64,000 nt of DNA from Candidatus Omnitrophota bacterium (GCA_023227985.1 JALOCB010000003.1:5260-69259), one strand, 5' to 3'; shown: positions 1-53,272, numbered from the stretch's first letter. The notes: generated from the letters alone by a model not told the origin. A program made the numbers and translations.

Positions 1-3
1 AGA

Positions 4-3000
4 ATGATCCAGCGTCTGGCTATTAATAATGGTACTGCCCACGGCAATAACTATGACGCTGACGGTAAACTTATTGAAACACAGATGAATTTGAAGATGA
101 CCGCGGCGATCGCCGAAGTTATTAAGGCGTATGGTATACAGATAGTCCAGCACGGCGTGACCGGAACGCCTATTAAAAATCTCCAGGCATTGCGTAATGT
201 CGGGATCAGGGCCGCTCATGTCGGGACCAATTGGCAGAATATTATTTGGGAAACTTTAGTTGCCCAGGCGCAGGCGGGTAATTCGACCGCTAAGTCCATA
301 GTAAACCGGATGATCGATGCGACTATCGCTAAGACTGCGGACGTGGAGAAGAAGTATAAAGTATCCGGCCGAAGCGCAGAAGCCAAGGATAGCGTTTATG
401 TCCCGGGAAAAGACAAGAACCTGGACAAGCTGATCGGTAAAGAATTAAAGATGGTATTAGGTGTTTTCAACGACGAGTTGGTTGCTCTTCCTGATGACTT
501 GATTGCCAAGATTGATGAGGCCACCGAAAAATCCGCTACCGAGCATATGCTGGGTTTCGGTTCTGACGGAACAGCCCAGATGGTAAAGGATGATTATGCG
601 GTTCAGGGGTTGGTTTATCCTGAAGATTTCTCCTCGATCAAAGGATTATATGCCTTTAAGGCGCTCGAAGGAACGGATAAGACGATTATGTGTTGTAATA
701 TACGTTCGCCTCTAAGCATTAGGGGTATTATGCGCGCGGCCCAAAAAACAGGCAGCGTGGTTATTTTTCAGCAGGCAATGAGCGAATTCGATTATACCTG
801 GAAAGGCGGCTATGCCCCGGAGAATGCGGCTAAGCTTGCCCGTAATATCAAAGAAGCTGCAAAAAAAGAAAATTTCCACGATTTCATGATTAAGGGCGAT
901 CATCTTACGGTTAAAGTTGATGATGCTTTCTTGAAGGATAAGGCGGCGCAGGATGCTGTTGCTGTGGTATTTGAGAAAATATTGGATGAACAGGATGTTT
1001 CCAAGCGGGAAGCATTGTTCAACGCTGCATCCAAAGACGAAGTTCTTTTAGCCAATGCCGGCGTAGCTAAAGCAATGAAAGCGGTAAATAAGGCTATGAC
1101 CTTGATCAAAGAAGAAGTTGCTTCGGATTTCACTGTTTTTGCTTTAGACGCGTCATTTATGCCTACCAGGCTTAATGTCCTGGTCAGCGCTTACCTGGCG
1201 GGGTTTATTCCCCAGGATGCAGGTTTGGAAGCTGAAGTTGGCGAGATTGGCGGAAAAGAAAATTCCACGGTTGCCGACGCGTTGGAATTCATTACCGGTA
1301 TCAGGTTCAAGGAAGAGGTTGTGGTCAGCCAGGGAGTGAAATATTCTCAGCTGGTCGGTCCGAGAAGGATCGGTGTTCTTACCGGCGGCGGACCTGCTTC
1401 CGGGCATAACGCGGTGATCGCGGCAATGGTCCGCGAAGCGGAGCAGCGGGGGATCGAGATCGTGGCTATCCCTGAAGGTTGGGCTGGTTTGACCAAGGAT
1501 GAAGTAGCCGCGCAAGCCAAGGTTATAACTATTAAAGATGTGGAAAAGTGGGGGAAGAAAGGCGGCACAATGCTGGGGACCAGCCGCACCAATCCGTATA
1601 AGAAAGAAGGGGACGCCCAGAAGGTTTGGGATAATATCCAGAAGTTAAAGCTTGACGGTCTGGTAACTCTCGGCGGTGATGATACCAACGGGGTTACTTC
1701 CAAACTGCAAAAAGAACATCCGGATTACTTATTCATTGGTCTGCCTAAGACCATGGATAATGATATAGCGCTTCCGGAGAGTGACGCGCAGACCTATGGT
1801 TTTGACAGCTTTACCGTCAAGGCCTCTGAATCGTTCGAGGCTGGAAAGATTGACGCGCAATCTACCCATAGGATACTGATCGCTGAAGTTTTTGGAAGGG
1901 CGGCCGGATTCGTTTCTGCGCGTATCGGGGCCAATATAGGGGCTACCCGCACACTGATCCCTGAAGAATTGGTTGATCTTTCAAAGTTAGTCGAGGATCT
2001 GCGCAGCTATTATAAGAATAATAAATACGGGGTTGTTGTGGTTGCCGAAGGGGCAAGCGTCAATGTTGATGGTTTCAAACTGGATGAAAACGGGGAATTG
2101 ACAGTTGTTAAGCCCGAAGACCCGGATGTAAAATTGTTGCTGGCCGCATTTAAGAGCGATCCTATGGCCAAAGCGGCTTTTATCAAGTCTATGAAAGCCG
2201 AGATGGATGATTTTGGCCACAAAAAACTGGAGAATGTCGGTCTTATTGTCGCAGCTGTGGTAAAAACCGCGTTAAAGGCGGATAAGATCGATATTAGCTT
2301 CGCCGGTAAAGCGGATTATCTTTTTCGCTCCGCCGATGTTTCCAAATTGGACGCTGAAATGACCACTATGCTGGGGAAGGCCGCTGTGGAGAAGATCGCG
2401 GATATCCAGAATGATCAGTTGCTTTACGCTTACAAGGGGCAGATTAAATCCATACCGTTTGCCCGGGAATTAGGCGGAAGGGTCCTGGATTACAAAGGCG
2501 CCCATAAAGATGAATATATGTTGGCCAACCTGGCGCTTATTGATGAAAAAACTGAAATAACGCTTTCGGATGCATCGGTTAATGAGGACTTGTTCCAGGC
2601 AGCGGTTAGAAACTTAAAAGGACTTAACCCGGGCGAATTAATGACTCTGAGTTTTTCGGAGATGAAGGTTTTGTTATGGAAGCTTAATAGCCTTGATCAA
2701 GAAACCGGGGACAATCAGGAAGTAGTTCAGTCTGTCAGAAGGATTCTGCATAGGATAGACGACAGGCAGATAGAACAGGTCAAGAAATTTGCCAATATCG
2801 GCGTGTTTGCCCGAGAAAATACTGCGTATAACCTGGAATCAGTGCTTAAGGATGACAATATCCTGGTTATCGCGGCTAACGCGCTTATTTTTCGCGCCGG
2901 AGCCTTTGCCGAATTCTATCATAATTGGGAGCCGGGAGTTAACCTCGCGGCGATCAAGTCTATGAAAGGCGGCAAAGAAGCTACTGCCGAGGAATTTGTC

Positions 3001-4767
3001 CGGCAGAACAGCCGTTATAACGGACCTTTTAGCCCGTATCAGTTAAAAGGTTTGCGCGTGCTTAAGGATGAACGCCGGGTGATTGATGGTGTCGCTGTTA
3101 ATTTCATTTTCGTGCCCGCGGATAAGAATATCGGAAGGCCGGATATCAAGATACCATATTTCGGCCCGGAAACAACTAACCAGCAGGTGCTTGATACTAT
3201 GAAGGCCTTAGGTTTAGAGTTGGATGTCATGGCCTATTACGGCCCGACCAGCGAAACGGTTCAGCCCAGGATATTCAAGGAGTTCATTGAGGCTGGATTG
3301 CCTGTTGTAGCAGCTTCTCCGGTCAACACCGACGCTGTAAAAAATATGCTCAAAGCTAAGTTTCAGCAGGAAGGTGTTGCGGATGATATGCTGGATGAAG
3401 CGGTGAGTAAGGCTTTTAAGGAAGGTTTGTATTCCGCTACCCGTAAAGAAATCGGCGCGGATGTCAAGATCGTGGATACTTTAAGCTGCACTTCCAATGC
3501 CATGATTTCGGTTATTAAAGCAATGTGGGATAAGTTCGGTATCGATCATGGTACCGGCCTGACTATTCATTCCCAGACTGATTCCAATGAGACTTTCCCG
3601 ATGAAAAGCGGCAGGGCCAGGGATCCCCTGGATATCGCCCGCGGCGATTCCATCCGTGACAACATAATCCCTGCTTCAACCGGCGCAAAAAAGAACCTCT
3701 TTAAGATGATCCCGGAATTAAAAGGCAGGTTCGAGATCACCGCTGTTCGCACCGGTACTGTTTCGGCTTCGACCTGGGAGATGACCATGGACCTTAAGAC
3801 TGAAGTGACCAGGGATGATGTCCTTGCGGCTTTAAAGGATTTCGCCCTGAATAAGACCGACGGGGTGGTGAAATTTCACGAAGGAGACCCGGACAGGAAT
3901 CCCGGGCCTCTGGACGCCAACGCCGTGGTCGGCTGGAATAATGTTTCTATTATCGACAGTTTATTGATCAATGTTCTGGATAATAAGAAAACAGTGACTA
4001 TTAAAGGTTTGTATGATAACCAATCAGCGGCGCCGAATCAAATGGTTTCTAAATGGTCGCCGTGGATGGTTGACGGTTTAAGGCTGCGCCAGATAGTCGG
4101 CGAAAAGAACAGCAAAAAGCTGAACAAAGCCGAAGCTGTAGCGTATGCCAAACTCAACGCCGGTTATGCCGGCCTGCTTAAAGCCGTAAGCGCGGTAAAA
4201 ACCAGCGGAGCTCTGGTGGTCAGCGCTGACGTGGTCTTAAAGAACGCCGGGACGCTTTCATCGCTCAAAGCCTTGAAAGAATCAGGCGCTCTTATTGAGA
4301 TCATTGTCCAGGCGAACAACAAGGCTGTCGCTGATAAAATGGTATCAATGGGCGTTGAACAATTCGCGAGCATTCAGTTCAAGCAGGTTAACGCGATAGT
4401 AGAAGAGTTGAATACCAAAGGTATAACTGATGAAAGAATAGTAGTGCTTAAGACCAAAGCTGAATCGAAAGAAGAAGTCAAGAATACCGTCAAGGTGGTC
4501 AATGTCGGCGAAGCTAAAGTCGCCGAATCTTCTGTTAATGCCATGTCGATAGCAGTGGCAAAGGCAGTAACCACCGTGTTGCAGGATAATACGGAGGTTG
4601 TTGATCAATATCAGCAGATGGCGAAGAATTACGCCGAAGCTAACGACGTCGAGCTAAGCAAACTGGAAGATCTGACCAGCCAGATCTCGGATATGCCGCT
4701 GGTTAAGGTGAGCGAAGAAGTGGTCAAGGCTCAGGTTACTTACGAAGAAACTGTAAACAAGATCTAA
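4..4767 (+). CDS. Giant multidomain glycolytic fusion protein, 5'-partial (>1587 aa): class II fructose-bisphosphate aldolase segments + PPi-type 6-phosphofructokinase + GAPDH + conserved C-terminal module
   Basis: ORF is open from window position 4, so the gene continues upstream. aa 1-90 match the class II FBA C-terminal half (GTAHGN..., IVQHGVTGTP vs FVFHGGSGST). aa ~200-450 match the class II FBA N-terminal/catalytic half (TIMCCNIRS..VVIFQQA; IKGDHL = HxDH; EVGEIGGKEN). aa ~455-850 match PFK (RRIGVLTGGGPASGHNAVI; GGDDTNG; PKTMDNDI; FGRAAG). aa ~930-1270 match GAPDH (catalytic SCTSNAM, HSQT, NIIPASTGAAK). aa ~1395-1587 form a module shared with the next gene. Confidence 0.8.
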   Translation: MIQRLAINNGTAHGNNYDADGKLIETQMNLKMTAAIAEVIKAYGIQIVQHGVTGTPIKNLQALRNVGIRAAHVGTNWQNIIWETLVAQAQAGNSTAKSIVNRMIDATIAKTADVEKKYKVSGRSAEAKDSVYVPGKDKNLDKLIGKELKMVLGVFNDELVALPDDLIAKIDEATEKSATEHMLGFGSDGTAQMVKDDYAVQGLVYPEDFSSIKGLYAFKALEGTDKTIMCCNIRSPLSIRGIMRAAQKTGSVVIFQQAMSEFDYTWKGGYAPENAAKLARNIKEAAKKENFHDFMIKGDHLTVKVDDAFLKDKAAQDAVAVVFEKILDEQDVSKREALFNAASKDEVLLANAGVAKAMKAVNKAMTLIKEEVASDFTVFALDASFMPTRLNVLVSAYLAGFIPQDAGLEAEVGEIGGKENSTVADALEFITGIRFKEEVVVSQGVKYSQLVGPRRIGVLTGGGPASGHNAVIAAMVREAEQRGIEIVAIPEGWAGLTKDEVAAQAKVITIKDVEKWGKKGGTMLGTSRTNPYKKEGDAQKVWDNIQKLKLDGLVTLGGDDTNGVTSKLQKEHPDYLFIGLPKTMDNDIALPESDAQTYGFDSFTVKASESFEAGKIDAQSTHRILIAEVFGRAAGFVSARIGANIGATRTLIPEELVDLSKLVEDLRSYYKNNKYGVVVVAEGASVNVDGFKLDENGELTVVKPEDPDVKLLLAAFKSDPMAKAAFIKSMKAEMDDFGHKKLENVGLIVAAVVKTALKADKIDISFAGKADYLFRSADVSKLDAEMTTMLGKAAVEKIADIQNDQLLYAYKGQIKSIPFARELGGRVLDYKGAHKDEYMLANLALIDEKTEITLSDASVNEDLFQAAVRNLKGLNPGELMTLSFSEMKVLLWKLNSLDQETGDNQEVVQSVRRILHRIDDRQIEQVKKFANIGVFARENTAYNLESVLKDDNILVIAANALIFRAGAFAEFYHNWEPGVNLAAIKSMKGGKEATAEEFVRQNSRYNGPFSPYQLKGLRVLKDERRVIDGVAVNFIFVPADKNIGRPDIKIPYFGPETTNQQVLDTMKALGLELDVMAYYGPTSETVQPRIFKEFIEAGLPVVAASPVNTDAVKNMLKAKFQQEGVADDMLDEAVSKAFKEGLYSATRKEIGADVKIVDTLSCTSNAMISVIKAMWDKFGIDHGTGLTIHSQTDSNETFPMKSGRARDPLDIARGDSIRDNIIPASTGAKKNLFKMIPELKGRFEITAVRTGTVSASTWEMTMDLKTEVTRDDVLAALKDFALNKTDGVVKFHEGDPDRNPGPLDANAVVGWNNVSIIDSLLINVLDNKKTVTIKGLYDNQSAAPNQMVSKWSPWMVDGLRLRQIVGEKNSKKLNKAEAVAYAKLNAGYAGLLKAVSAVKTSGALVVSADVVLKNAGTLSSLKALKESGALIEIIVQANNKAVADKMVSMGVEQFASIQFKQVNAIVEELNTKGITDERIVVLKTKAESKEEVKNTVKVVNVGEAKVAESSVNAMSIAVAKAVTTVLQDNTEVVDQYQQMAKNYAEANDVELSKLEDLTSQISDMPLVKVSEEVVKAQVTYEETVNKI
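4190..4767 (+). repeat. Copy A of a duplicated ~570-nt segment encoding the shared C-terminal module (paired with 12130..12698)
   Basis: The last ~60 nt (gatctgaccagccagatctcggatatgccgctggttaaggtgagcgaagaagtggtcaaggctcaggttacttacgaagaaactgtaaacaagatctaa) is about 80% identical to the last ~60 nt of the next gene (gacctgaccagccagatctcggagatacccatggccaaggtcagcgaagaagtcgctaaggcgcaggccacttatgaggagactataagcaagatataa). Protein-level similarity extends ~190 aa upstream (ALVVSADVVLKNAGTL... vs ALVVSANAVLNNAGTL...). Confidence 0.7.
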
Positions 4768-4773
4768 CATTCT

Positions 4774-4828
4774 CAAGACCCGGTCTTGCATCCCAATGAG
4801 TCCTAATGGGTTGCAAGACCGGGTCTTG
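4774..4828. repeat. Paired palindromic motif CAAGACCCGGTCTTG ... CAAGACCGGGTCTTG. It forms a ~22-bp stem hairpin 7 nt after the stop of giant gene 1.
   Basis: caagacccggtcttgca-tcccaatgagtcctaatggg-ttgcaagaccgggtcttg. The arms are reverse complements, and each 15-mer is itself a near-palindrome. No U-tract follows. Confidence 0.75.
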
Positions 4829-4925
4829 AACATGTCTTTATATGAATAAGATAAATCCGTTTCAATTTAAAAACCGCAACAGGCAGAAGTTGTAATTTAA
4901 TTCAAATCATCAACCGGAGGGAAAA

Positions 4926-7900
4926 ATGTTCGTAAGGTTATCCCAAAACAACCTGTTCAGGAAGATCGTCGGCATTCTTATTCTTTTACAATTTTCAGCC
5001 GGTTTTGCCGTGATTAGGGGTTATGCTGCTCCCGGAAATTTGCGGCCTGCCGCCGTCAAACAGGATGGTTCCCGGTCCGGGACTATCCAGAATTCGCTTG
5101 ACGCGGCCAGCCTGGATAAGGTTATAAAAACCCCGGTCATTCATAAGGACGGCGGTATAACCGGCCAGGATGTTTTTAAGAATATCCTTGGCGAATACCG
5201 TGTTTCCTCCACGATAAACAATCTCGCTTTCGGGACGTTCGTCCAGGGGCAGATCGACCTTAGTTCGGTTCAGAACCGGGAAGCGCTGGTCAATAATTTC
5301 GGGGAGATTAAGAGCAAAGATCGTTTTTTTACCCTTGAATACGCGGGAATTCCGCTTGCCCTGGTCAAGAAGGCCGAAACCGGAGAAATTACCGTCAAGA
5401 AAGTAGTCGAAGACATTGCTTCGATCCCGCTCAACATCCTTTCCGACAATGCCGAAAAGCTCAAAACCGAAGGTGTTACTTCCTCGGATATCCTGGTCCG
5501 CGATTTTCTTATCCTTGAAAAAAGGTCGCGTATCGACATCACTCAGTGCATGACCGTAGAGTTTGGCGAGCTGCGCGACTACGTATACAATCTGGCTAAA
5601 AATGTCGGCCAGGAAAAGGCACTGGAGATGGCATCGGCGTTTGCGGGTAAGGCTACCGTTGACGAGGCTATGGCGGAAGTCGGCGAGAAAGCTAAGCAGT
5701 TAGGCCGCGACCAAGCGAAGGACACAGGTCTGGCGCTGGCCGGCGGTAAGGGTTTGAGCCTTTCGGTCATGAGCCGCGTGGTTGACGTGCCGCCTGGTTT
5801 GAACGTTACTACTACCGCGTATTTTAAGTTCGTCAAAGATAATAAACAGGTCTGGGAGAAGATCTTTAATGAGCTGCAGACCTTGGATACTATGGATGAC
5901 CAGAAGCGCGACGTTGTCACTTCGGAGATCCGCGATGTCATTAAAAGCGCGCCGATACCCGAAGACATCAAGGCTGAGGTAACAGCAATGTACCACCAGC
6001 TAAGCGTTATCCGTTTTCTTGCCGGTAAACCTTCGCCCGCTCCGGTGGCTGTCCGCTCTTCCGGCACCAAAGAGGATATTCACGTTAAAACCTGGCTGCC
6101 GGTTTCCACCGGTTCCCAGGCCGGCCAGTCGGATACATTCCTTAATGTTAAGGGCGAACGGGATGTCCTGGATAAATTACGCGCCGATTGGGCGTCTTTA
6201 TTTACCGATCGCGCGGTCAGCTACCGTGATGACGCCACCTTCTTGCAGTTCTCTGGAGCCATCGATTTTAACGGTAAGACTTCTCAGGATGTCTATTGGG
6301 GGATCGTGGCGAAGCTTCGGGAATACTCCAAGAAACTGGATAAGCCTGAATATAACGTGTACGCTGACTTAATGAGTAAAGTCACCAGCCCTAACCCTGG
6401 GTCGGTGAGCCTGATGAACGCCATGGAGGAGATCCTGAGACAGGAATCGAATCCGGAGATGTCCAATGCCCTTGCCGTTCTGAAGAAGAAAGCAGAGGAG
6501 GTTGTGCATCCCGAACAGATCGGTATCGACGTTGTGATCATGCAGATGGCTAAGAGTTATCTTGCCGGCGTGCTTTTTACCGTCAATCCGGCGACCAAGA
6601 TGGCCGGTGTGGCCCAGTCGTTATACAAGTCATGGTATATGGGTGATGATTCGCTCGTGTACCGCGACGCGAAGACCGATATTATCCAGGGAACCAGGCC
6701 CATAGTGGTGAGCTTTGATGTGGCCTTCGGCTACGGCGAGAACGTAGTCGGCGGCAAGGTAAACCCGGACAAGTTCATTATGGGCACCTACGACGGCGAG
6801 AGCTGGTTTGTTATCGAGAAAAGCAAAGGCAATAAACTTATTCAGATGAAGGACGTGGAAGAAGTCATCGATCTCCTCAAAGACAAGATATCGGAAAAGG
6901 GCCAGCGGCAGCTCGCTATGACCGTGAAAGACGCGATCGCGTATGATGAGGTCGGCAAGCGGATCAACGGCATTATGGCGACCAAACTCTACGGTATCAA
7001 GTATCTTAAGGCGCTTGAGGGTAAAGAGGAAAGCGATAAAGACAAGAAGGCCCGCGTACAGGCTATCGCCAATGAGATTGCCGACATGGTCAAGAATAAG
7101 GTTTCCGAGGATGAAGTTGTCGCGTTCATCAAGGGTAACTTTGAGGTCGTTAACCGGAAGGGCTATAAAGGCATTCAGGAAATGGCGCTTTCGGGAGTGG
7201 TCAGGGAAGTGTTTGAGAAAGTCCAACAGGCCCAGGCTGAGACCGACCGGGGTATGTTTAAACTCTCAAAGCAGCTCGGCGATATGGGAAAGGCCGATAC
7301 GCTTATCCATATGATCAAGGAGGTTTGGGAGAATAAGGAATTTACTCTTTCCGACCGCCAGGCGATTCTTGACAAACTGAACCTTACCAACCAGGAATTG
7401 CGTAATATGAGTTACCTTATCCGCGCGCTGGTGGATAATAGCTTTACTTCAAATTATGAGACTACTTTAACCCACCAGGATACCTTTACTATGACCGATG
7501 ATCAGGCCCAGTATGTGGCGCGTATGGGTTGGGCGATCACCGAATATTATAAGGATGCCCGAGATATAGAGTATGCCATCGAGATAGATAAAACCGCTTC
7601 TTCCGACAAAGCGGTGAGGCTTTACGTTGTGGACGACCTGGGCAATGTCCAGGGAATGGACAATAATGGCAACCTGGTAACGGTGAAGTCCGAAAAGGAT
7701 AAAGCGCGTATAAAAGAAGCGAAGCTGCGCCTGTATAACGTGCAGGCCCGTCCGTATACCGCGGAATACTTGAAGGTGGATGTAATGCGCGCCCGGACCG
7801 AAGCGGATGAAAAGTGGCTTGAGGAGAATTCTCCTAAAGCGATTGCCAGCGGGACTAAGGGAGAGAACGCGACGCAGGGTTATGTGCTGGTGTTCGATCC

Positions 7901-10900: not shown

Positions 10901-12698
10901 CGATGTGCTTTCCGAGGCCATGCGCACAGGTGCGGTAACGCTGCCGGATAACTGGAACAAGAAGCTTTGGGAGGCCTATCGCAGCGACCTGGAAAGCGAG
11001 ATCAGTAAGATCCTTAACGGAAAGACGGTTGAGCAGTATTTTATCGCGCAGTTCAGCGAACAGATGAAGGAAGTGCTCTCCGCCAACAAAGGGGCATTGG
11101 TTGTCCATCTTTTGGGAAGCCTCAACTGTGTTGATTTCTTTAATATGAAAGGCGGTTTCCTGGTTGAACAGGTCAATCCCAACCCTGATTACGGCATTCT
11201 TGGAGCGGCGCGCGCAATAGGGGATATGTGGGAGATAAACCGCATGGAATTGTCCGCTTTTAAGGCGGTATGGGATAATCTGCCGGTTGACCAGCGCGGT
11301 AATTTTGGCCTGCAGATCACCAATCTCAAAGGCACCCAGTCCGGCGCGGTGGTGATCGGCTGGCGTAATATTCTGAAACAAACCGGTATTATCCCGGGGC
11401 AAGACGGTTTGCAGGTTGGCGTCAATATCGTCACTCCGGCGGATAGCATCGCTGCGGATAAGTATTTTGAGTACTTTAATACGCTCGGAAGCGGGTTAAG
11501 TTTTATCTCATATGATGCGTTGAAGCTTGGCGCTGCCTGGGCCGGCGTGGATATTTTTTGGAAGGAATGGAGGAGGCTGGCTAAGGAAGATGAGTTGTTG
11601 AGGTTCGGCGTCATGACCGGCTGGATGGCGGAAGCCAAGGCTCTGAGGTTCGGCGGCAAAGTCCTTTCCTTTGATATTTCTGACGAAGCCAAACAGACTG
11701 ACGGCGGCGCTGAGGTTGTGCCTTACCGGGTAGTGGTGGAGAATCTCTTCCGGGGGATCATTAAGAAATATGATGCTTTGGATAACGGCCAAGCTCTTTC
11801 TCTCGAAAAAGAAGAGTTGGAGGCAATACTCTGGATCTTGAATTCTTCTCCTTTTGAGAATATGTCAAGCCCGTTTGCCGCGATCAAGAGTATGAAGAAT
11901 ATCAGGAATGTGATCGAAAGGCTCAGCGATGACCAAAAGAAGGCCCTAAGTGTACTTTCACAGGGCTTGGTTTTTGTCAATCACGGGCTGGATAAAAAGG
12001 TGGCGGCATTGCTCGTAGACAAGAAGTTGCTCGACACCGCATATGAATCCGACACGGCGGTATATAAAGGGTTGAACAGCGGTTTTGACAGCTTCGCCAA
12101 TGCCTTGAAAGAGGTTAAGAATGCCGAGGGCGCTTTAGTGGTTAGCGCAAATGCTGTGTTGAATAACGCCGGAACGCTGAGAGTCCTGAGAGAAATAAAA
12201 GAAACCGGGCTGACCTTGGAAATAATCGTCCGGGCTGATACGGAAGATCAGGTGAATAAGCTGATTGCCCTTCGGGCAGACGAAGTCGCGACTATCCAGG
12301 CCAAGCGGCTGTCAGTTGTGCTCAGCGGCTTGAAGAACGCGGGTATAACCGATGGCAAGATAGTGGTGATTAAAGGCAAAGAAGAAGTAAAAGACGCGGT
12401 AGAAGCCGGCGTAAAGGTCGTAGAGATCTCCATGCCTAAAACAGAGGAGTCCAGTATCAACTCCATGGCCTTAGTTGCGGCAAAAGCGGTAATCATAGTG
12501 TTAAATGGTGAAGAAACGGTTGCCGCGCAATACCGGGAAATGGCGGTAAAATACGCCGCAGATAACAGCGTAACCTCTGAAGAATTGGATGATCTGCAGG
12601 ACCTGACCAGCCAGATCTCGGAGATACCCATGGCCAAGGTCAGCGAAGAAGTCGCTAAGGCGCAGGCCACTTATGAGGAGACTATAAGCAAGATATAA
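4926..12698 (+). CDS. Giant 2590-aa protein: N-terminal hydrophobic anchor/signal + pyruvate phosphate dikinase/PEP synthase-like enzyme + ~900 aa unassigned region + conserved C-terminal module
   Basis: RBS ggaggg lies 6 nt upstream of the ATG. N-terminus has the hydrophobic stretch IVGILILLQFSAGFAVI followed by RGYAAPGNLRPAAVK. PPDK N-terminal domain: GGKGLSLSVM...VPPGLNVTTTAYFKFV and VAVRSSGTKED...NVKGERDVLDKLRADWASLFTDRAVSYR. Phospho-His swivel motif: RGGDTCHAAIFCREQGIPAVTG. PEP-utilising TIM barrel: IGIMIEVPSAALVADE...FFSFGTNDYSHLAGMGDRED. The C-terminal ~190 aa are closely related to the C-terminus of the previous gene. Confidence 0.8.
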   Translation: MFVRLSQNNLFRKIVGILILLQFSAGFAVIRGYAAPGNLRPAAVKQDGSRSGTIQNSLDAASLDKVIKTPVIHKDGGITGQDVFKNILGEYRVSSTINNLAFGTFVQGQIDLSSVQNREALVNNFGEIKSKDRFFTLEYAGIPLALVKKAETGEITVKKVVEDIASIPLNILSDNAEKLKTEGVTSSDILVRDFLILEKRSRIDITQCMTVEFGELRDYVYNLAKNVGQEKALEMASAFAGKATVDEAMAEVGEKAKQLGRDQAKDTGLALAGGKGLSLSVMSRVVDVPPGLNVTTTAYFKFVKDNKQVWEKIFNELQTLDTMDDQKRDVVTSEIRDVIKSAPIPEDIKAEVTAMYHQLSVIRFLAGKPSPAPVAVRSSGTKEDIHVKTWLPVSTGSQAGQSDTFLNVKGERDVLDKLRADWASLFTDRAVSYRDDATFLQFSGAIDFNGKTSQDVYWGIVAKLREYSKKLDKPEYNVYADLMSKVTSPNPGSVSLMNAMEEILRQESNPEMSNALAVLKKKAEEVVHPEQIGIDVVIMQMAKSYLAGVLFTVNPATKMAGVAQSLYKSWYMGDDSLVYRDAKTDIIQGTRPIVVSFDVAFGYGENVVGGKVNPDKFIMGTYDGESWFVIEKSKGNKLIQMKDVEEVIDLLKDKISEKGQRQLAMTVKDAIAYDEVGKRINGIMATKLYGIKYLKALEGKEESDKDKKARVQAIANEIADMVKNKVSEDEVVAFIKGNFEVVNRKGYKGIQEMALSGVVREVFEKVQQAQAETDRGMFKLSKQLGDMGKADTLIHMIKEVWENKEFTLSDRQAILDKLNLTNQELRNMSYLIRALVDNSFTSNYETTLTHQDTFTMTDDQAQYVARMGWAITEYYKDARDIEYAIEIDKTASSDKAVRLYVVDDLGNVQGMDNNGNLVTVKSEKDKARIKEAKLRLYNVQARPYTAEYLKVDVMRARTEADEKWLEENSPKAIASGTKGENATQGYVLVFDPNKDVAWHADQIRRLKAGDFTAEEKAQIMAMGFNPEEYGSGKEKQLSVILYLLEADPNHDPIMRLVDSVVTIRGGDTCHAAIFCREQGIPAVTGAGKVILNGQLLKTGDAVTVDANNGNIYEMPADAGARIPINYVKFKIKPYGIPGDDDNMPYPGIGQIIAAASAAQQNSPIMLAVDAVGNSLTRAEFKGEEIGINVYAGYGHYLLQQIKAGKIKEPVRVRVQELIQGKVPGAKRFVDNIENVMAGAFAKDPAARSAYRDIMGKDFNKADSLQLLEFFDLKSDIELYGLDALKLVKQQVDILDLVPRLPENMYQTLEYLYGATQRRLNYDYNIIADLQNHPWILKEVDSKLAEKGYATFKEYITNEFLYFYNLMGFTIAPDQTAKNRAYDFAQDKIRGMPGSEVFSWPGVNPLVGLRGTSLEIEAFDEDFGGNQLVLDFLFDSVIQAHQNTGNQAWFYVFVRSSRELETLDKIIEHKAKQTGKLPKEIGIMIEVPSAALVADELAVKMSEMEKKYKKYGVEHTFFSFGTNDYSHLAGMGDREDPRMKLKIMDPAAIEAIGEMKAAGYYYDDAAKVLPLIDEGADVMQQLMETVVAAANGSSVATSLCGEAITALVNRGDYETAGKIMALLDSFGVSMMKVRLAASMTRVDTMAATKGITIPEAGRSILFDLSAGEVKQKKGVIKGEIIFVDNADDLVPNVLKGLQGPELTKKKEMFKLQSLENARSTMRTFNKIVIITKNLVAQQEPELVAEMGKAAFSKFVNDGLLKDIGNGQYVWTNLGVKTEKFNQELTIQGFSEKERKAIEGLWQKAWDNSIEGLERRGIDWDDLQYAKAIIVDADVNLDGWDVFRKDKSIIPTRIKATVKGISSRRAELEGQLATIDYAAKKVYKDFLSVEKIAAVLRSLPIPAEKPMITTQSAVAENANSVYQKIGYHPKLLLAYERNAVNELGKIFEEYVGKLVEEVEKVTQETDVQKRVWLLQKLQNKVGGLAEPMIKSFMSDVLSEAMRTGAVTLPDNWNKKLWEAYRSDLESEISKILNGKTVEQYFIAQFSEQMKEVLSANKGALVVHLLGSLNCVDFFNMKGGFLVEQVNPNPDYGILGAARAIGDMWEINRMELSAFKAVWDNLPVDQRGNFGLQITNLKGTQSGAVVIGWRNILKQTGIIPGQDGLQVGVNIVTPADSIAADKYFEYFNTLGSGLSFISYDALKLGAAWAGVDIFWKEWRRLAKEDELLRFGVMTGWMAEAKALRFGGKVLSFDISDEAKQTDGGAEVVPYRVVVENLFRGIIKKYDALDNGQALSLEKEELEAILWILNSSPFENMSSPFAAIKSMKNIRNVIERLSDDQKKALSVLSQGLVFVNHGLDKKVAALLVDKKLLDTAYESDTAVYKGLNSGFDSFANALKEVKNAEGALVVSANAVLNNAGTLRVLREIKETGLTLEIIVRADTEDQVNKLIALRADEVATIQAKRLSVVLSGLKNAGITDGKIVVIKGKEEVKDAVEAGVKVVEISMPKTEESSINSMALVAAKAVIIVLNGEETVAAQYREMAVKYAADNSVTSEELDDLQDLTSQISEIPMAKVSEEVAKAQATYEETISKI
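12130..12698 (+). repeat. Copy B of the duplicated C-terminal-module segment (paired with 4190..4767)
   Basis: See copy A. The two copies can be aligned codon by codon. Confidence 0.7.
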
Positions 12699-12704
12699 TA
12701 TATT

Positions 12705-12758
12705 GAGGCCGGGTCTTGTAACCGATTCAAACGCAAGGGAATACAAGACCGGGTCTTG
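12705..12758. repeat. Second occurrence of the (G)ACCGGGTCTTG palindromic motif pair, 7 nt after the stop of giant gene 2 and abutting the RBS of giant gene 3
   Basis: gaggccgggtcttgtaaccgattcaaacgcaagggaatacaagaccgggtcttg. Same core motif and same two-copy architecture as at 4774..4828. Confidence 0.7.
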
Positions 12759-12778
12759 ATAATTAGAGGAGGGAAAAG

Positions 12779-15700
12779 ATGTCCAGGCCGTCTAAAAACA
12801 ATAGTATCTCTAAAATAATTTCCGGCGTTGTGATCGCGCAATTTATCATGAGCAGTATAGCCCTGCGCGGTTATGCCGGCACAGACAATTTAAGGCCGGC
12901 TCCGGTCAAAGATTCCGACCGGATAAGCGTTCTGGCCGATGAATTGCAGAAAGACGGCGGCAAACTGGCTGAATGGATCCATATCTTAGCGGAAAATACA
13001 ATTGTGGGCGATGCCGCTAAAGGTTCGAACGTCGGCATGGTCATACGGCTGGGAAAGCTTGTTGAAGAGAATATATCCGGGTCCATATTAGGGCATTCGG
13101 CAAACCGGAAGGCGTATATAAAGGAAGTGGGCGCTCAAATCGCTGAAGGGCTGCGTTTGACCGGAATGGAAGAAAAGGCGATCGCGGCTGCCAGCCGCAA
13201 GATAGCTTTTTCCAGATACGATAACATCATGAATCACCGGATCCAGGCGATGTTTCAAGCAGGGATCAGGGAGATCTGCCTTTGCGTAGGCAGTGATAAG
13301 GATAAGCTCACCGTTGAGGAAGAGATATCGGATGTGCTTGCGCAGTTGCAGGTGTCTTTTGCCGATGTCTCTTTGGAACAAATAAAAAAGATAATTTTCC
13401 ACGTGGCTTGGGAGCCTGCGGCGAATATCGGCACCGGTACTGCTGTCGGTCCGGAAAAGATCAAGCTGGTCCATCAGGCTATCTATGAATTCTTTGCCGA
13501 GAAGTATAATACACCCTCCGGGTATATCGGCGATGTTTGGGGGAAGTCATTGAAAATACTTTACGGCGCAAGCGTTGACGGAAAGAACGTCGACGGCATA
13601 ATGGCGGTGAAAGAGGATAAAGGCATGGCTTTGGTGCACGGCGTGTTATTCGCTTCTTCGGGTAAAAAGGCCGATGGCTTCCTGGCTGTGGCCGAGGGGG
13701 TTAGCCGCGCCGCGGAAAGGGATAACGCCCAGTATGTCTGTTTTGTCAACCTTAAGGAATTCGCCAGGGCTGAGAAAGATGAGGCTTTGACTTTTGTCGT
13801 CGAGATCGTCCGGGCCATTGCTTTAGGACGGATCGATCCCCGGCATACCATTCTGGCGATCGCTGACCAGGATGTACATCTAAAGGAGTGGCAGGACGCG
13901 ATCGTCGGCAGAAGCGTTTCGATGTCGGACGGCGGATACGCGTATGTTGAAGGAACGAACTTTAAGGACAAGAATGTGCTTTTTCGCCCGGATTATAACA
14001 CTCCGGCTTCGGTAAAGACCGATGATCAGGGTAATGTTTTGTCGATCAAAATATCCGACGCAAGCAGGATCGTTGATTCCTTCCCGGCTTTGACCAAGAT
14101 CCTGAAAGATAAGCCAAAACATGTGGTTGTCGTTGTCCATTTCGAACCTAAGGTGTTGAATCCCGCGACCGGTAAGAAAGACAAGAAAAATCTGTCTACT
14201 AAAGTCACAGCGGACAAACTTAAAGAATTGCTGCCGGCGGAATATAAAGATAAGGTAATATTCCTGGCTGATTCAGTCAATGACAATGGGATTGCCGCCG
14301 AAGCAATGCGGGCTATAGAAAGTTATACTGATTCCGAGATCATCGTATTGGAAAATATCCGTTTTGCCAAAGGCGAAAAGAAAGGTGCCCCCGAGCTTAA
14401 TGATCCTAAAGGTGTAGCTTTACGCAAACAGCTTTCAGGATTAGCGGACGAATATGTGGTGGATGCCTTGGGTAATATTCATCGCGCCCACGCATCAATG
14501 CTGCCTTTGCCCGGGGTGCATAAAGTCATGGGCAGTCTTGTGGAAAAAGAGATTAAAGTGTTCAACCGGATACTTAACCCGGCGCATCCTTATGCCGGGG
14601 TTAACGGCGGTAATAAGGTTGAAGATAAAGTGGATACCATGGATGTGTCTTTGTCGACGATGCAGGAAGGCGACGCGATCATCATCGGCGGGGCTATGGC
14701 CTACACTTTTTTAAAGGCGCAGGATCCAACATTGAAATTGGGCAAATCACTTGTTCAGGCGGATAAAGTTGATCTGGCTAAGACTATACTTGAGAAGGCC
14801 GCCCGGAAGAAGGTGCGGATAATCCTTCCAGTGGACCATCGCATCTCGGATAAACTCGCTCCCGGAGCAGCAGAATTGGTTACTGAGGGGCTGGAAGTGC
14901 CGGATGGGTACATGGCGGTAGATATCGGACCCAAGACTGAAAAAATAGTCGCCGAGGTCTTAAGTAATGCCCAGACCGCTTTTTGGAACGGCCCAATGGG
15001 CGCGTTCGAGGATGAGGCTGGTGGTTTTAATAAGGGGACTTATACGGTTGCCAGGGAACTGCAGAAAATGGGCAGGTCCGGACGCCTGGCCGGTATCGGC
15101 GGCGGGGAGACACGTATGGCAGCAATTAAGGCCGGGGTTACCGATGCTGACGGCGTGTTCATGTCCAGCGGCGGCGGTTCCACGCAGGAATATTTCGCCA
15201 AGAAAGGCAATCTCCCGGTGATCAAGAATCTGGAGAATGACGAAACCGCCCAGAAAAATCTCGTCCTCGCGGGGAAATTGGGGGTAGAACCCGCGGATCT
15301 GGCGCGTTTTGAAGCGGCAGACAGCAGTATTTATAATGCCTTGGGAGATAAACTTTTCAACGGCTATATATCTCAGGTCAGAAGGTTGCTTCCCAGGTTT
15401 TCGACAGGCCAGAAATTAAACGGCGCTCTGTCCAAAGCAGAGGTCTCTGCGGAGGTGATTAAAGATTCGCGCGGAAACAATACTGTCCGGGCAACTTTAA
15501 AGATCGGGGATATTGTTACTGTCGGCGAAGTCCCTGCAGGCGCTTCCAAAGGGGCAGCTGAGGCTTTTGCTTTTCCGCCGAAGGAAATAGATAGGGCGAT
15601 CGCCAACGTGGCGAAGATCCAGGAGATACTTAAGAACAGCGGCCTGGATATAAGCAAACACAGCGATCTGCGCAAGACGGAACAATTGATCATTGCCGCG

Positions 15701-17302
15701 GCCGGTGAAAACTTCGCGACACTGGGCGCGAACGCCACAGTCCCTATTTCCTGGGCCTTGTGGAGGATGGCGGCAGCGTTGAATAATATGGAACTCTGGG
15801 AATACATCCGGATCAATGAGCCGGGAGTTGTCGGTAATGATCCGGTTTATTTCTATATGAACATATATAACGGCGGGCTGCACGCTTCCGGAGGCGACGC
15901 TTCGGTATTGGGTACAGTTTGGACCGAATTCCAGGAGATGCTGATCGTGCCCGTGGGCGCTAAAACTCACGCCGAAGGCGTGGCTATGGGAGATAAGATC
16001 GACCAGGAATTGAAGAAAATACTGAAAGGTAAATTCGCGGAAGCGGATATAATGCGTAAAGATGAAGCTGGTTTCGCGGTCAAAGGCCTGGGAAAAAGCG
16101 AAGACGCGATCGCTTATGTGGTACAGGCGATCAGGAACGCCGGCTATGAGCCCGGTAAAGACGTAAAGCTGGCTTTGGATGTCGCCGCGACCTCTTTCTA
16201 CGACGAGAAAGAGAATATATACAAGTTCCAGGGCCAGAAATTGACCTCAGCCGAGATGGTCGATTTTTACGTCAAACTGGTAAAGCAATATGACGGCCTG
16301 TTCCTTTCTATAGAAGACGGCCTGGCTGAAGAAGATTGGCAGGGATGGGTAGAGCTAACCGCGGCTATGAAAGAAAAAGGCGTCCTGACTATAGGCGATG
16401 ATCTGTACGTTACCCAGCACGGCCGGTTGAACAAAGGGCTGGCGATGAACGCGGCTACAGCGATCCTGATCAAGGTTAATCAAAATGGGACCCTGGGCGG
16501 AACTATCGATGTTATGAAGACCGCCAAGGCCAATGGCATTAAAGCTGTGGTATCGCACCGTTCCGGAGAAACTCTGGATGCCGGGATCGCGGATCTGGCT
16601 TACGCAACCCGGGCGTTCGGGCTTAAAACCGGGGATCCTCAACCTTTGGTTGATTTCCAGAATCCGAACGAACTGGTGCGCCGGGCTAAGTATGACAGGA
16701 TGATCGAGATCCAGAAACAAGAAAACATCCAAAATGACCCGGCATTATCCAGGCCTAAAGCGCTGTTGATCAATGCGGATTTTTTCAAATCCGGCGCGGT
16801 TAAGAACGCTGTGGCGGAAATAGCGAGATTAAACGGGAATATCAATGTGGTGATCTACGGAGATAATGCCGAAAAGCTAAAGACGCTGGTAGGAAATCCC
16901 GATATTATCGCGGTGCGGAGTTTGACTGCAGCTGTCTCTGAAATAGCTAACCGCGGGGTAAAATCTTCTCAGGATGCCGTTATTTTGACGCCTATGCCGT
17001 ATAGCTCGGAAACGTTTATTGTTCAAATCCGCAGCGGAGAAATAAGCACGCTGGCTTTGGCCAAGGCGGTAAAGCAGTTATTCAAGAACGACCGGATCAC
17101 CGCGGCTATGGATGAATTCTATAAATCGCTGGTTGATAACAAAGTGGTTTCCGAGCAGGACTACATAAATACAAGGGAAAAAATCCTAACGGATCTGATC
17201 GACGGTGTTTACAACCTGGGTGAGATTAAGTTGACAAAACAGGTATCTGATGTTATAGAAAAGGAGCGGCTGGTAACCGAAGAGTTCGTGGGTAAAGTGT
17301 AA
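12779..17302 (+). CDS. Giant 1507-aa fusion protein: N-terminal anchor + triosephosphate isomerase + phosphoglycerate kinase + enolase domains
   Basis: RBS aggagg lies upstream of the ATG. N-terminus has IISGVVIAQFIMSSIALRGYAGTDNLRPAPVK, sharing the RGYA..NLRPA.VK motif with the previous gene. TIM domain: GHSANRK, AWEPAANIGTGTA, ILYGASVDGKN. PGK domain: ENIRFAKGEKKG, GNIHRAHAS, GGAMAYTFLKA, VDIGPKT, FWNGPMGAFE, GIGGGET. Enolase domain: IKDSRGNNTV, MLIVPVGAK, LALDVAATSFY, LSIEDGLAEEDW, IGDDLYVTQ, ILIKVNQNGTL, VVSHRSGETLD. Confidence 0.8.
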   Translation: MSRPSKNNSISKIISGVVIAQFIMSSIALRGYAGTDNLRPAPVKDSDRISVLADELQKDGGKLAEWIHILAENTIVGDAAKGSNVGMVIRLGKLVEENISGSILGHSANRKAYIKEVGAQIAEGLRLTGMEEKAIAAASRKIAFSRYDNIMNHRIQAMFQAGIREICLCVGSDKDKLTVEEEISDVLAQLQVSFADVSLEQIKKIIFHVAWEPAANIGTGTAVGPEKIKLVHQAIYEFFAEKYNTPSGYIGDVWGKSLKILYGASVDGKNVDGIMAVKEDKGMALVHGVLFASSGKKADGFLAVAEGVSRAAERDNAQYVCFVNLKEFARAEKDEALTFVVEIVRAIALGRIDPRHTILAIADQDVHLKEWQDAIVGRSVSMSDGGYAYVEGTNFKDKNVLFRPDYNTPASVKTDDQGNVLSIKISDASRIVDSFPALTKILKDKPKHVVVVVHFEPKVLNPATGKKDKKNLSTKVTADKLKELLPAEYKDKVIFLADSVNDNGIAAEAMRAIESYTDSEIIVLENIRFAKGEKKGAPELNDPKGVALRKQLSGLADEYVVDALGNIHRAHASMLPLPGVHKVMGSLVEKEIKVFNRILNPAHPYAGVNGGNKVEDKVDTMDVSLSTMQEGDAIIIGGAMAYTFLKAQDPTLKLGKSLVQADKVDLAKTILEKAARKKVRIILPVDHRISDKLAPGAAELVTEGLEVPDGYMAVDIGPKTEKIVAEVLSNAQTAFWNGPMGAFEDEAGGFNKGTYTVARELQKMGRSGRLAGIGGGETRMAAIKAGVTDADGVFMSSGGGSTQEYFAKKGNLPVIKNLENDETAQKNLVLAGKLGVEPADLARFEAADSSIYNALGDKLFNGYISQVRRLLPRFSTGQKLNGALSKAEVSAEVIKDSRGNNTVRATLKIGDIVTVGEVPAGASKGAAEAFAFPPKEIDRAIANVAKIQEILKNSGLDISKHSDLRKTEQLIIAAAGENFATLGANATVPISWALWRMAAALNNMELWEYIRINEPGVVGNDPVYFYMNIYNGGLHASGGDASVLGTVWTEFQEMLIVPVGAKTHAEGVAMGDKIDQELKKILKGKFAEADIMRKDEAGFAVKGLGKSEDAIAYVVQAIRNAGYEPGKDVKLALDVAATSFYDEKENIYKFQGQKLTSAEMVDFYVKLVKQYDGLFLSIEDGLAEEDWQGWVELTAAMKEKGVLTIGDDLYVTQHGRLNKGLAMNAATAILIKVNQNGTLGGTIDVMKTAKANGIKAVVSHRSGETLDAGIADLAYATRAFGLKTGDPQPLVDFQNPNELVRRAKYDRMIEIQKQENIQNDPALSRPKALLINADFFKSGAVKNAVAEIARLNGNINVVIYGDNAEKLKTLVGNPDIIAVRSLTAAVSEIANRGVKSSQDAVILTPMPYSSETFIVQIRSGEISTLALAKAVKQLFKNDRITAAMDEFYKSLVDNKVVSEQDYINTREKILTDLIDGVYNLGEIKLTKQVSDVIEKERLVTEEFVGKV

Positions 17303-17331
17303 TTACCGCAGCTGATATAAAATGTTCTTTT

Positions 17332-17389
17332 AGAGGCCTCTGGAGAATTCCTATAAAGGATTATATCAGAGGCCTCTGATCTTTTGGGG
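17332..17389 (+). terminator. Paired palindrome AGAGGCCTCTG x2, followed by a T-tract: probable rho-independent terminator of the giant-gene operon
   Basis: tagaggcctctggag...atcagaggcctctgatcttttgggg. The second copy cagaggcctctg is followed by atcttttgggg. Confidence 0.55.
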
Positions 17390-18826: not shown

Positions 18827-19549
18827 ATGGACATAAAAGAACGCAGGCAGGCAATAAGGTGGCAAATAAACAGCCCCGGGCAAATTGTTCTGGAGGACTG
18901 CCGGGCGTTAGTTAATTGCACTATACTTGATATAAGTTACCGGGGGGTCCAGGTATTGCTGGATAAACCTCTGGAGAATACCAAGTTATTCAAGATCAGC
19001 GTCGTACTTTCCGAGGAGTGCTACCTGGACAGCATCGACCTGCGCAGCGTCTGGCACAGGAAGGTTCCGGAAGGCGAGCTTTACGGCTTGTATTTTAACC
19101 GCATAAAAGACATAGATAAAGAGAAGATCTACAAATTTGTCTTTAAGCACGCACCAAGGCAAATACATCAACAGTGGTGGCAGGAATCTGACAAGGGGGG
19201 GGGTGAATCAATGGAAGATATGGGGACCAACGACAAGAGAGTCTTTGCGCGGTTTCCGGTGCAGATGGCTTTGAAATTCATTGATCTATTATCCAACAGG
19301 GAAGGCCAGGCGCATGCTTATGATATCAGCGCCAAGGGTTTGGGATTTATGGCGACCGAGGAATTAAAACCGCTTACACCGTTGGAGATGTGGCTACAGG
19401 TCCCGGATAAAGGGGAGCCGCTTTATACCAGAGGTGAAGTAGTCTGGTCAGAGATGGTCGAACCTAATAAATACAAGGCCGGGATCAATCTGGAAAGAGC
19501 GGACCTGATGGGTGTTTCCCGGGTTTTAAGGACCCTCAATACGATATAG
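18827..19549 (+). CDS. Tandem PilZ-domain protein (c-di-GMP receptor)
   Basis: Two copies of the PilZ signature. First: RRQAIRW ... DISYRGVQV. Second: KRVFARFPV ... DISAKGLGF (RxxxR ... D-x-S-x-x-G). Confidence 0.7.
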   Translation: MDIKERRQAIRWQINSPGQIVLEDCRALVNCTILDISYRGVQVLLDKPLENTKLFKISVVLSEECYLDSIDLRSVWHRKVPEGELYGLYFNRIKDIDKEKIYKFVFKHAPRQIHQQWWQESDKGGGESMEDMGTNDKRVFARFPVQMALKFIDLLSNREGQAHAYDISAKGLGFMATEELKPLTPLEMWLQVPDKGEPLYTRGEVVWSEMVEPNKYKAGINLERADLMGVSRVLRTLNTI

Positions 19550-19679
19550 TCTTGAGCTCAAGATCCCCACAGTAATAAAAGCCTTGACCAGGCAATTAAC
19601 CTGTGTTAAATTCGAATATTGTCTTCATTAGCCATTTCTGTAATATTCTGTTATCTCGTTCATATTTAGGAGGGGAATA

Positions 19680-20996: not shown

Positions 20997-21006
20997 GGTT
21001 TAGCCA

Positions 21007-21921: not shown

Positions 21922-21925
21922 AAAA

Positions 21926-30126: not shown

Positions 30127-31688
<1,562 letters not shown>

Positions 31689-35774: not shown

Positions 35775-35776
35775 AA

Positions 35777-42593: not shown

Positions 42594-42603
42594 AAAGGAG
42601 TTA

Positions 42604-43863: not shown

Positions 43864-43906
43864 CTTTATAGGCCGGCAGTCGACCTGTTATCCGGAATAA
43901 TAAATA

Positions 43907-53268: not shown

Positions 53269-53272
53269 TTTT

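Follow-up and report, generated by a model that had tools for sequence, protein, structure and literature searches.

We analysed a stretch of 64,000 nucleotides from a Candidatus Omnitrophota bacterium (GCA_023227985.1, JALOCB010000003.1:5260-69259; hereafter the window), which begins with three very large genes, g1, g2, and g3, encoding fused glycolytic enzymes one after the other on the plus strand. The window opens inside g1 (4..4767) and contains residues 86-1673 of its 1673-amino-acid (aa) protein; g2 (4926..12698) encodes 2590 aa and g3 (12779..17302) 1507 aa. A preliminary description of the locus had reported three giant open reading frames (ORFs) in tandem, and we confirm this: they lie on the same strand and are intact, also in an NCBI contig of a metagenome-assembled genome (MAG). 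The full-length g1 product, P0021 (1673 aa), is reported as 100% identical, and the window copy differs from it by one residue. The GC content is uniform throughout the window (0.46-0.52), and this evenness does not suggest a foreign origin.

Independent assemblies speak strongly against a chimeric join or a frameshift. Comparison with JAQTRK010000008.1 (MAG GCA_028711865.1, Candidatus Omnitrophica) revealed 12 substitutions over 14,767 nucleotides, with 0 frameshifts and 0 stops; between these near-identical assemblies 11 codons are changed, six synonymously and five non-synonymously, and all five non-synonymous changes fall outside the enzyme cores. In the Logan assembly of SRR22315508, the g1 product is exactly P0021, the neighbours of g1 and g2 are unchanged, and the g2 call is equal. 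The g3 call deviates there in start and length (start 23085 and 821 residues vs 23034 and 1507), so that g3 is not independently confirmed in this sample. An exact-sequence look-up returned no record for g3, and did return matches for g1 and for homologues.

The same fusions are present in related genomes, i.e., in many Omnitrophota assemblies at 38-86% identity. Full-length homologues in which the domain order is kept range from 99 to 38% identity for g3, from 83 to 39% for g1, and from 78 to 43% for g2, and both the fusions and the gene order are found in other samples at 67-86% and at 38-45% identity. As these architectures and this gene order recur in independent Omnitrophota assemblies, at 38-100% identity, the fusions are not an assembly artefact. 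Using our own domain profiles (HMMs), we found many shuffled architectures among the family members, the modules being freely exchanged, and the source names, where given, are all Omnitrophota. The g1-g3 family is limited to Omnitrophota and made of modular multi-enzyme proteins. Some other members (P0111, P0029/P0007, P0066, P0068) carry an archaeal type II glyceraldehyde-3-phosphate dehydrogenase (GAPDH) or a cupin-type glucose-6-phosphate isomerase (GPI; PF06560). One genome has a g2 of only 1417 aa and a g3 with an added GPI domain (1825 aa); in JAKPTF010000035.1, which represents Omnitrophota in GTDB, the g1 homologue is followed by an ORF of only 951 aa (locus L006, 15205..18060), and the g2 homologue may be split or built differently. 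Acidobacteriota loci (L029-L062, Thermoanaerobaculia / Holophagales) matched the part of g1 from phosphofructokinase (PFK) through GAPDH in tblastn (query residues 540-1434, 26-33% identity); they were rejected as fusions, pfk and gap being adjacent separate genes in L029.

Seven enzyme domains on three polypeptides

The enzymes first proposed for g1 (aldolase, PFK, and GAPDH) and for g3 (triosephosphate isomerase, TIM; phosphoglycerate kinase, PGK; and enolase) are supported by a Pfam scan, in which all the matches of g1-g3 exceed the gathering thresholds, and sequence searches against the PDB agree with the Pfam assignments. Catalytic residues were read from the translations and their conservation was checked in alignments A1-A3. 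They had been described as intact, which stands for most of them, e.g., the Cys of SCTSN in GAPDH, the phospho-His of the dikinase, and the Glu and His of TIM; the HxDH attributed to the aldolase is in fact KGDH, with a Lys in place of the first His. All the features of g1-g3 given below are on the plus strand.

After a leader that lies outside the window, g1 consists of a permuted class II fructose-bisphosphate (FBP) aldolase, a PFK, a helical module, a GAPDH, and a C-terminal module (C-module). The aldolase barrel (1..1350), identified by PDB alignment and Pfam, has its GTAHG / QHGVTG half first and its CCNIRS..KGDH..LDAS..EAEVGEIGG half second. F_bP_aldolase (PF01116) matches it at 1.2e-12 (48.4 bits, cut-off 25.5) over profile positions 167-273 only, and, in the alignment with a PDB aldolase, residues 37-82 of the query pair with residues 195-238 of the chain, and its residues 369-441 with residues 93-165. 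Since both halves align in swapped order, the barrel is circularly permuted. The three Zn-binding His and the Asp-His pair are nearly invariant (GTAHG, QHGVTG, and KGDH; alignment A2). The PFK domain (1363..2535; PF00365, 2.8e-55, 188 bits) contains invariant GGDDT and PKTMDND motifs, which we take to be the Asp104/Lys124 signature (E. coli numbering) of pyrophosphate (PPi)-dependent PFK; NCBIfam models do not separate the ATP and PPi types here, and all the scores are under their cut-offs. It is followed by the helical linker module helA (2563..2865), a homologue of helB in g2 (BLASTP 6.7e-5; hhalign probability 97.6%), and by GAPDH (2866..4080; Gp_dh_C 2.2e-19, 70 bits). In the GAPDH catalytic domain, the Cys of SCTSN and the His of TIHSQT (Cys149, His176) are invariant, and the TIGR01534 score is 96 vs a cut-off of 367. 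The C-module of g1 (4126..4764) combines a HAD-fold core devoid of the catalytic Asp with helices ending in PLVKVSEEV..YEETVNKI.

The g2 protein is organized as a leader, an N domain without assignment, a phosphoenolpyruvate (PEP)-synthase-type dikinase carrying a 325-aa insertion, a swivel-like and PEP-barrel-like pair, the helical module helB, and a C-module. The dikinase (5712..9875) is made of an ATP-grasp N domain, the insertion, a phospho-His swivel domain, and a PEP-binding barrel. A complete enzyme resembling pyruvate phosphate dikinase (PPDK) had been announced for g2: all three dikinase domains are indeed there (PPDK_N 1.4e-53, PEP-utilizers 2e-14, PEP-utilizers_C 7.6e-11), but the enzyme is nearer to PEP synthase than to PPDK in both PDB and NCBIfam comparisons, with an equivalog score of 277 vs a cut-off of 598. 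The swivel motif is GGDTCH (codon of His1070 at 8133-8135), and T-C-H1070, R1409, E1485, N1522-D1523, and C1599 are invariant among homologues. The next region, X1 and X2 (9876..11675), is a conserved extension with no sequence-level match. When modelled, it comes close to a PEP-binding domain as in PEP synthase plus a swivel-like domain, and we read it, from this model, as a putative second, degenerate swivel-plus-barrel pair lacking the phospho-His; no mutase-like fold appeared in the modelled extension. The helB module (11709..12041) is homologous to helA of g1, and the C-module of g2 (12042..12695) is 46% identical to that of g1.

In g3, the leader is followed by TIM, PGK, enolase, and a C-module. 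Pfam TIM matches the barrel (12962..13933) at 2.8e-19, over profile positions 94-242 only. Indeed, this domain begins at the beta3 motif (ILAEN..GHS), His106 and Glu212 being invariant, and an equally invariant FVNLKEF (N324, K326) is found after beta8. This latter motif is a putative displaced beta1 with the equivalents of Asn11 and Lys13, beta2 coming next. Neither phmmer with the C-terminal 106 aa nor hhalign against an E. coli TpiA sequence detected the permuted beta1-beta2. An AlphaFold2 (AF2) model of residues 50-400 (pTM 0.76) displays exactly eight strands alternating with helices, and TIM structures account for all of its top PDB hits (E 7e-10). The invariant residues and this eight-strand model suggest that the TIM barrel is probably also circularly permuted. 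The PGK domain (13940..15283; PF00162, 1e-86, 292 bits) covers profile positions 3-377 of 379. The enolase domain (15416..16723; Enolase_N 2.1e-16, 60.7 bits; Enolase_C 1.4e-63, 215 bits) reaches 300.9 with TIGR01060, vs a cut-off of 300, and the equivalents of its metal and acid/base residues are all recognizable (Ser39, Glu168, Glu209, Asp245, Glu290, Asp317, Lys342, His370, and Lys393). The C-module of g3 (16736..17299) is a divergent homologue (hhalign 95.5%).

Altogether, the three proteins carry a putative PPi-type PFK, a class II aldolase, TIM, GAPDH, PGK, enolase, and a PEP-synthase-type dikinase, which reads, as judged from sequence, as a PPi/AMP-economising Embden-Meyerhof set without mutase. 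The enzyme domains look like divergent paralogues and would be catalytically active; all seven enzymes have kept their catalytic and metal-binding residues, which are invariant in homologues down to 38-45% identity. On the contrary, the claim of seven or more consecutive activities has to be abandoned: seven are present, but the pathway has a gap where PGK should connect to enolase, none of the three fusion proteins having a phosphoglycerate mutase (PGM) domain. From the proposal of a hard-wired channelling glycolysis, we retain that the fusions are real; the lack of a mutase, the presence of a separate leaderless enolase and a separate leaderless mutase in the window, and the order of the domains along the polypeptides (aldolase-PFK-GAPDH; TIM-PGK-enolase), which departs from that of the pathway, speak against it. 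A domain order of this kind therefore does not imply simple linear channelling.

Leader, C-module, and cysteine content

The three proteins start in the same way: a stretch rich in K/R precedes a hydrophobic core, about 17-22 residues long, which leads into a small-x-Ala site (MAA in g1, taken from P0021; GYA in g2 and g3). N-L-R-P comes next and, 20-40 residues on, K-D-G-G. The leader of g2 (4926..5156) contains a K/R-rich n-region, a 17-residue hydrophobic core, RGYA, NLRPAAVK, and KDGG, and that of g3 (12779..12961) a hydrophobic core, RGYA, DNLRPAPVK, and then KDGG. Most of the apparently full-length family members show the same layout, with a core of about 17-20 residues, SYA, AYA, AFA, or ALA at the small-x-Ala site, and the motif [D/N]xLR[P/R] followed by DGG. 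In each of g1, g2, and g3, this N-terminal hydrophobic segment is the single one of the protein. Within g1-g3, DGG is located at module boundaries only (61-63 in g1; 75-77 and 2259-61 in g2; 59-61 and 384-386 in g3), the remaining GG pairs all lying within enzyme motifs.

At their other end, g1, g2, and g3 all terminate in homologous C-modules of about 215 aa. A profile search retrieved this module in only 129 cluster representatives out of 1.84 billion, and almost all of them carry it at their C-terminal end or close to it. In the 39 members scanned with Pfam, its partners are nearly exclusively PEPS/PPDK, PFK, aldolase, GAPDH, PGK, and TIM, together with GPI, enolase, GlpX, GatZ-like, mutarotase, and UDPGP domains. 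The module has a Rossmannoid HAD fold, and its motif I lacks the DxD nucleophile: VVSAD or VVSAN is read there, or LVIGAN in the family consensus, with Ser or Gly at the nucleophile position; no HAD family of Pfam or NCBIfam matches it. The C-module is thus a HAD-fold pseudo-phosphatase without the catalytic Asp. Among the ORFs of the window and of loci L001 and L003, which contain the region upstream of g1, the leader and tail motifs are found in g1-g3 and in no other ORF.

The proteins are also strongly depleted in cysteine. The Cys content of g1-g3 is 0.19-0.24% and the family median 0.26% (n=39), vs about 0.9-2% in most other proteins of the window (1.17% in a standalone enolase, 1.87% in a standalone mutase). 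The few residual Cys of g1-g3 are at catalytic or conserved sites.

Genomic neighbourhood

Upstream of the window start lies a giant gene, which encodes 26,119 residues, and 30,339 in its counterpart from another sample. These genes (L001 1..8234; L003 1..8256) terminate about 2 kb upstream of g1, and a methyltransferase-like region is found, with DUF7689, in the last 2743 aa of the giant protein. A conserved gene always separates the giant gene from g1; its product of about 510 aa (L001 8439..9968; L003 8452..9987) has a hydrophobic segment at the N-terminus and lacks any informative domain. We detected no similarity to g1-g3 in the C-terminal 2743 aa of the giant protein or in its 509-aa neighbour.

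Each of the three genes is followed by a very stable stem-loop. The first one (4773..4829, plus strand; g1-g2 spacer, fold about -50 kcal/mol) includes two copies of CAAGACCSGGTCTTG; the second one (12701..12761, plus strand; g2-g3 spacer, fold -28 kcal/mol) shares with it the arm CAAGACCGGGTCTTG; the third one follows g3 (17330..17379; spacer fold -32 kcal/mol). The palindrome CAAGACCSGGTCTTG is found in the first two stem-loops and nowhere else in the window. In a related genome, a different strong hairpin follows g1, and none follows g2.

Downstream of g3, on the plus strand, is a gene for a 433-aa protein with a signal peptide, KDGGG and GDGGG motifs, and no Pfam match (17400..18701). In other genomes, g3 is followed by proteins of 401 and at least 411 aa without domain match, whose likeness to the 433-aa protein is one of position and length; this protein may be part of the same system. 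A block encoding a PilZ protein, a sugar-binding lipoprotein, two ABC permeases, and a GH2-like/TPR glycosidase comes next (18827..25086, plus strand). The complete order, i.e., giant gene, ~510-aa gene, g1, g2, g3, ~400-aa gene, PilZ, ABC, and glycosidase, is conserved in one other genome, and its upstream part (giant or large gene, ~510-aa gene, g1, g2, g3) on two further contigs.

Two other glycolytic genes are located in the window. A standalone, canonical, and leaderless enolase is encoded on the minus strand (30393..31682; 429-aa ORF, likely start MAKIKK). It is 36% identical to the g3 enolase and scores 415 bits with Enolase_C vs 215 for the fused domain. Since this enolase exists beside the fused one, the fused set is, at least in part, a second set of paralogues. 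A standalone, leaderless, archaeal-type cofactor-independent phosphoglycerate mutase (ApgM; 47544..48830, plus strand; PhosphMutase and Metalloenzyme domains) is the only PGM seen in the window and has no fused counterpart.

The remaining genes include those of an Rnf-type ion-translocating ferredoxin:NAD+ oxidoreductase (34986..39767, minus strand; RnfB-, A/E-, D-, and C-like), in line with the fermentative and acetogenic metabolism that has been described for Gorgyraia and Velamenicoccia. On the plus strand, 41355..44932 encodes a ROK-family protein (possible glucokinase or regulator), a 419-aa protein with 0.24% Cys and an N-terminal transmembrane segment, and a LacI-type regulator, and 52342..59600 encodes a MoxR AAA ATPase, a DUF58 protein, and two large proteins of 947 and 746 aa, the latter with Big_2 and hyaluronate-lyase-like beta domains.

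Site of action and comparison with known systems

The leader, the C-module, the cysteine depletion, and the link to a giant gene point away from an ordinary cytosolic glycolysis; like the permutation of the aldolase, the probable one of TIM, and the PPi-type PFK residues, they were absent from the preliminary description. The g1-g3 proteins look like a specialised, probably envelope-associated second enzyme set. The reading that we tentatively favour, giving it slightly less than even weight, is that the proteins are exported by Sec and act at the envelope, where the C-module would serve for assembly or docking. We base it on the leader pattern, the single hydrophobic segment, the cysteine depletion, and the extracellular location predicted for Omnitrophota giant proteins by West-Roberts et al. 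2023 (bioRxiv 10.1101/2023.11.21.568195). In this reading, Sec would translocate the g1-g3 enzymes, their leader being removed; the common C-module would then hold them together at the envelope or surface of the cell, or dock them to a partner there. Such a partner would have ties to the giant-protein system, i.e., to the upstream 26,119-aa gene and, on the downstream side, to the genes for PilZ, the sugar ABC importer, and the glycosidase. At the envelope, the enzymes would convert sugar phosphates into pyruvate, with nucleotide phosphorylation. A more ambitious version, in which the Sec-exported fusions, recognised or docked via the pseudo-HAD module and a leader-proximal LRP/DGG signal, would provide an extracytoplasmic glycolytic module that is complete, yields ATP, and economises PPi, is conceivable but rather doubtful to us; the periplasm, the cell coat, the predator-prey junction, or an internal compartment (a bacterial 'glycosome') could be the site of such a module.

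Several observations weigh against export. The leader is Sec-signal-like by inspection, and the positive charges (LRP..K) past its putative cleavage site disfavour Sec. The cofactors (ATP/ADP/AMP, NAD+, and PPi) belong to the cytoplasm, and the UDP-glucose pyrophosphorylase and FBPase domains of other members also need cytoplasmic substrates. Moreover, ApgM is leaderless, so that nothing would connect the PGK of g3 with its enolase outside the cytoplasm, except a mutase that has escaped recognition. A 2026 preprint detected pfkA in Omnitrophota at relaxed thresholds only, so that the fused PFK could be the sole PFK of the cell. On the side of the giant protein, the C-terminal 2743 aa are not Cys-depleted (1.86%), and the profile search did not find the C-module in giant proteins. 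Finally, all the enzyme domains except enolase are far under the NCBIfam equivalog cut-offs, and GAPDH has no Pfam match to its NAD-binding domain (Gp_dh_N, PF00044) in g1, its Rossmann loop being degenerate (GxGxxG replaced by VFAREN, in IGVFARENT) and the ND of the strand replaced by NA; its cofactor binding is uncertain, as far as the sequence can tell.

Some of these points would be accommodated by a cytoplasmic, membrane-tethered metabolon, in which the leader would stay uncleaved as an anchor and keep the enzymes at the inner face of the membrane near the ABC importer, where they would run the main (PPi-dependent) glycolysis of the cell, both upper and lower, the C-module serving for oligomerisation. 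The need for ATP/ADP/AMP, NAD+, and PPi would be satisfied there, the ApgM that would bridge PGK and enolase looks cytoplasmic, a sugar-uptake operon is immediately downstream, and a pfkA visible at relaxed thresholds only fits a divergent fused PFK as sole copy. Besides, a membrane anchor with a cytoplasmic bulk is predicted for about 46% of the long proteins of Omnitrophota. However, a K/R-rich n-region ahead of the core favours an N-in, C-out topology, the small-x-Ala site after the core is conserved, the family-wide cysteine depletion is left unexplained, and a canonical enolase exists alongside the fused one. We consider such a metabolon unlikely, while giving it real weight.

The location of DGG at module boundaries, together with the C39 and S8 peptidase domains and the post-translational cleavage that West-Roberts et al. 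2023 respectively report and propose for giant proteins, would suit polyprotein precursors, cut at DGG into single enzymes (e.g., by a double-glycine/C39-type peptidase like those that giant proteins carry at their N-termini) in either location. We regard this as improbable: the sequence before DGG is unlike the canonical double-glycine leader consensus, DGG is absent at the aldolase/PFK, PFK/helA, and PGK/enolase junctions, and no peptidase gene is seen in the window. More improbable still, the domains could be pseudoenzymes with a structural or binding role in the cell coat, as parts of a non-catalytic scaffold or adhesin. The scores far under equivalog cut-offs, the degenerate NAD loop of GAPDH, a C-module that is itself a dead HAD domain, and the X1/X2 region of g2, which looks like a degenerate copy of dikinase domains, go in this direction, but pseudoenzymes are hard to reconcile with catalytic and metal-binding residues that stay invariant in all seven enzymes between such distant homologues. 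As for an assembly or gene-calling artefact (chimeric join or read-through of separate genes), the metagenomic origin of the sequence invites the idea, and the intact ORFs of the NCBI MAG contig, the Logan copies of g1 and g2, and the recurrence of the fusions and their order in different samples leave it practically no weight.

Glycolysis is, in textbooks, a matter of cytosolic, freely diffusing enzymes. Here, in an ultra-small and probably predatory lineage, seven glycolytic steps are fused into three polypeptides beside the largest genes known in bacteria; at least one TIM-barrel enzyme has been re-cut (the aldolase, and probably TIM), and nearly all the non-catalytic Cys have been removed. 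If the enzymes were active outside the cytoplasm, as in the export reading, they would constitute the first genetically defined extracytoplasmic glycolytic machine and would give a hint of the way in which these nanobacteria draw food from their prey; tethered inside, they would form a membrane metabolon hard-wired by nature. In both cases, the family offers natural permuted barrels and multi-enzyme fusions for enzyme engineering and a defined candidate module for targeting or assembly. It is also a warning for metabolic reconstructions of Omnitrophota, in which such domains are now counted as ordinary cytosolic enzymes.

The cluster had been presented as undescribed. Our literature search found no paper on this cluster, its leader, its C-module, or its permutations, but similar enzyme domains in Omnitrophota giant proteins are already published: West-Roberts et al. 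2023 reported TIM, GPI, FBPase, PGM/PMM, aldolase, and PPDK domains in such proteins, which they predicted to be extracellular, and PilZ, SBP/ABC, and glycosidase genes downstream of the giant genes. The g1-g3 family thus shares with these giant proteins ('Archaeovorins') the phylum, several enzyme types (TIM, aldolase, PPDK-type dikinase, GPI, and FBPase), a predicted extracytoplasmic location, and the PilZ/SBP-ABC/glycosidase neighbourhood. Unlike the Archaeovorins, which are single ORFs of tens of thousands of residues with multiple transmembrane helices, g1-g3 are separate genes downstream of the giant gene, encoding 1507-2590 aa with one hydrophobic segment and their own leader and C-module. 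PFK, GAPDH, PGK, and enolase are outside the list of West-Roberts et al. 2023, and the cluster itself is not described there. Seymour et al. 2023 and the 2026 preprint treat Omnitrophota glycolysis as ordinary.

Closer to the fusions themselves, the PGK-TIM of Thermotoga maritima and T. neapolitana (PMC7729029) also unites PGK and TIM on one polypeptide, in a bacterial cell that makes the fused form plus a separate PGK. The g3 protein differs from it by having TIM before PGK, by an apparently permuted TIM, and by the addition of an enolase, a leader, and a C-module, and it scores 336 with the NCBIfam bifunctional PGK/TIM model, vs a cut-off of 883. In the TPI-GAPDH fusions of stramenopiles (PMC3527533), fused glycolytic enzymes likewise bear an N-terminal targeting-type signal and belong to a paralogous second set beside the cytosolic enzymes; mitochondrial targeting peptides relocate a part of glycolysis there, a localisation shown experimentally. 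These are eukaryotic fusions of two enzymes with another targeting system, whereas the location proposed for g1-g3 is read from sequence features. Known glycolytic fusions are two-enzyme cases, and the g1-g3 family is, as far as we found, undescribed.

On the targeting side, the cargo of type IX secretion combines an N-terminal Sec signal with a conserved C-terminal sorting domain (CTD). By analogy, g1-g3 associate a Sec-type leader with a family-wide C-terminal module that is unrelated to the catalytic payload. This likeness is a functional speculation, as the type IX CTD is a beta-sandwich while the C-module is alpha/beta, HAD-like, and about 215 aa long, and no cognate secretion machinery was identified. 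On the metabolic side, PPi-dependent glycolysis, in which a PPi-PFK works with PPDK or PEP synthase, occurs in Entamoeba, Thermoproteus, Clostridium thermocellum, and Thermococcus, with separate and cytosolic enzymes. As read from their sequences, g1-g3 would resemble it by the Asp104/Lys124-type residues of their PFK and by a His-swivel dikinase that stands in place of pyruvate kinase.

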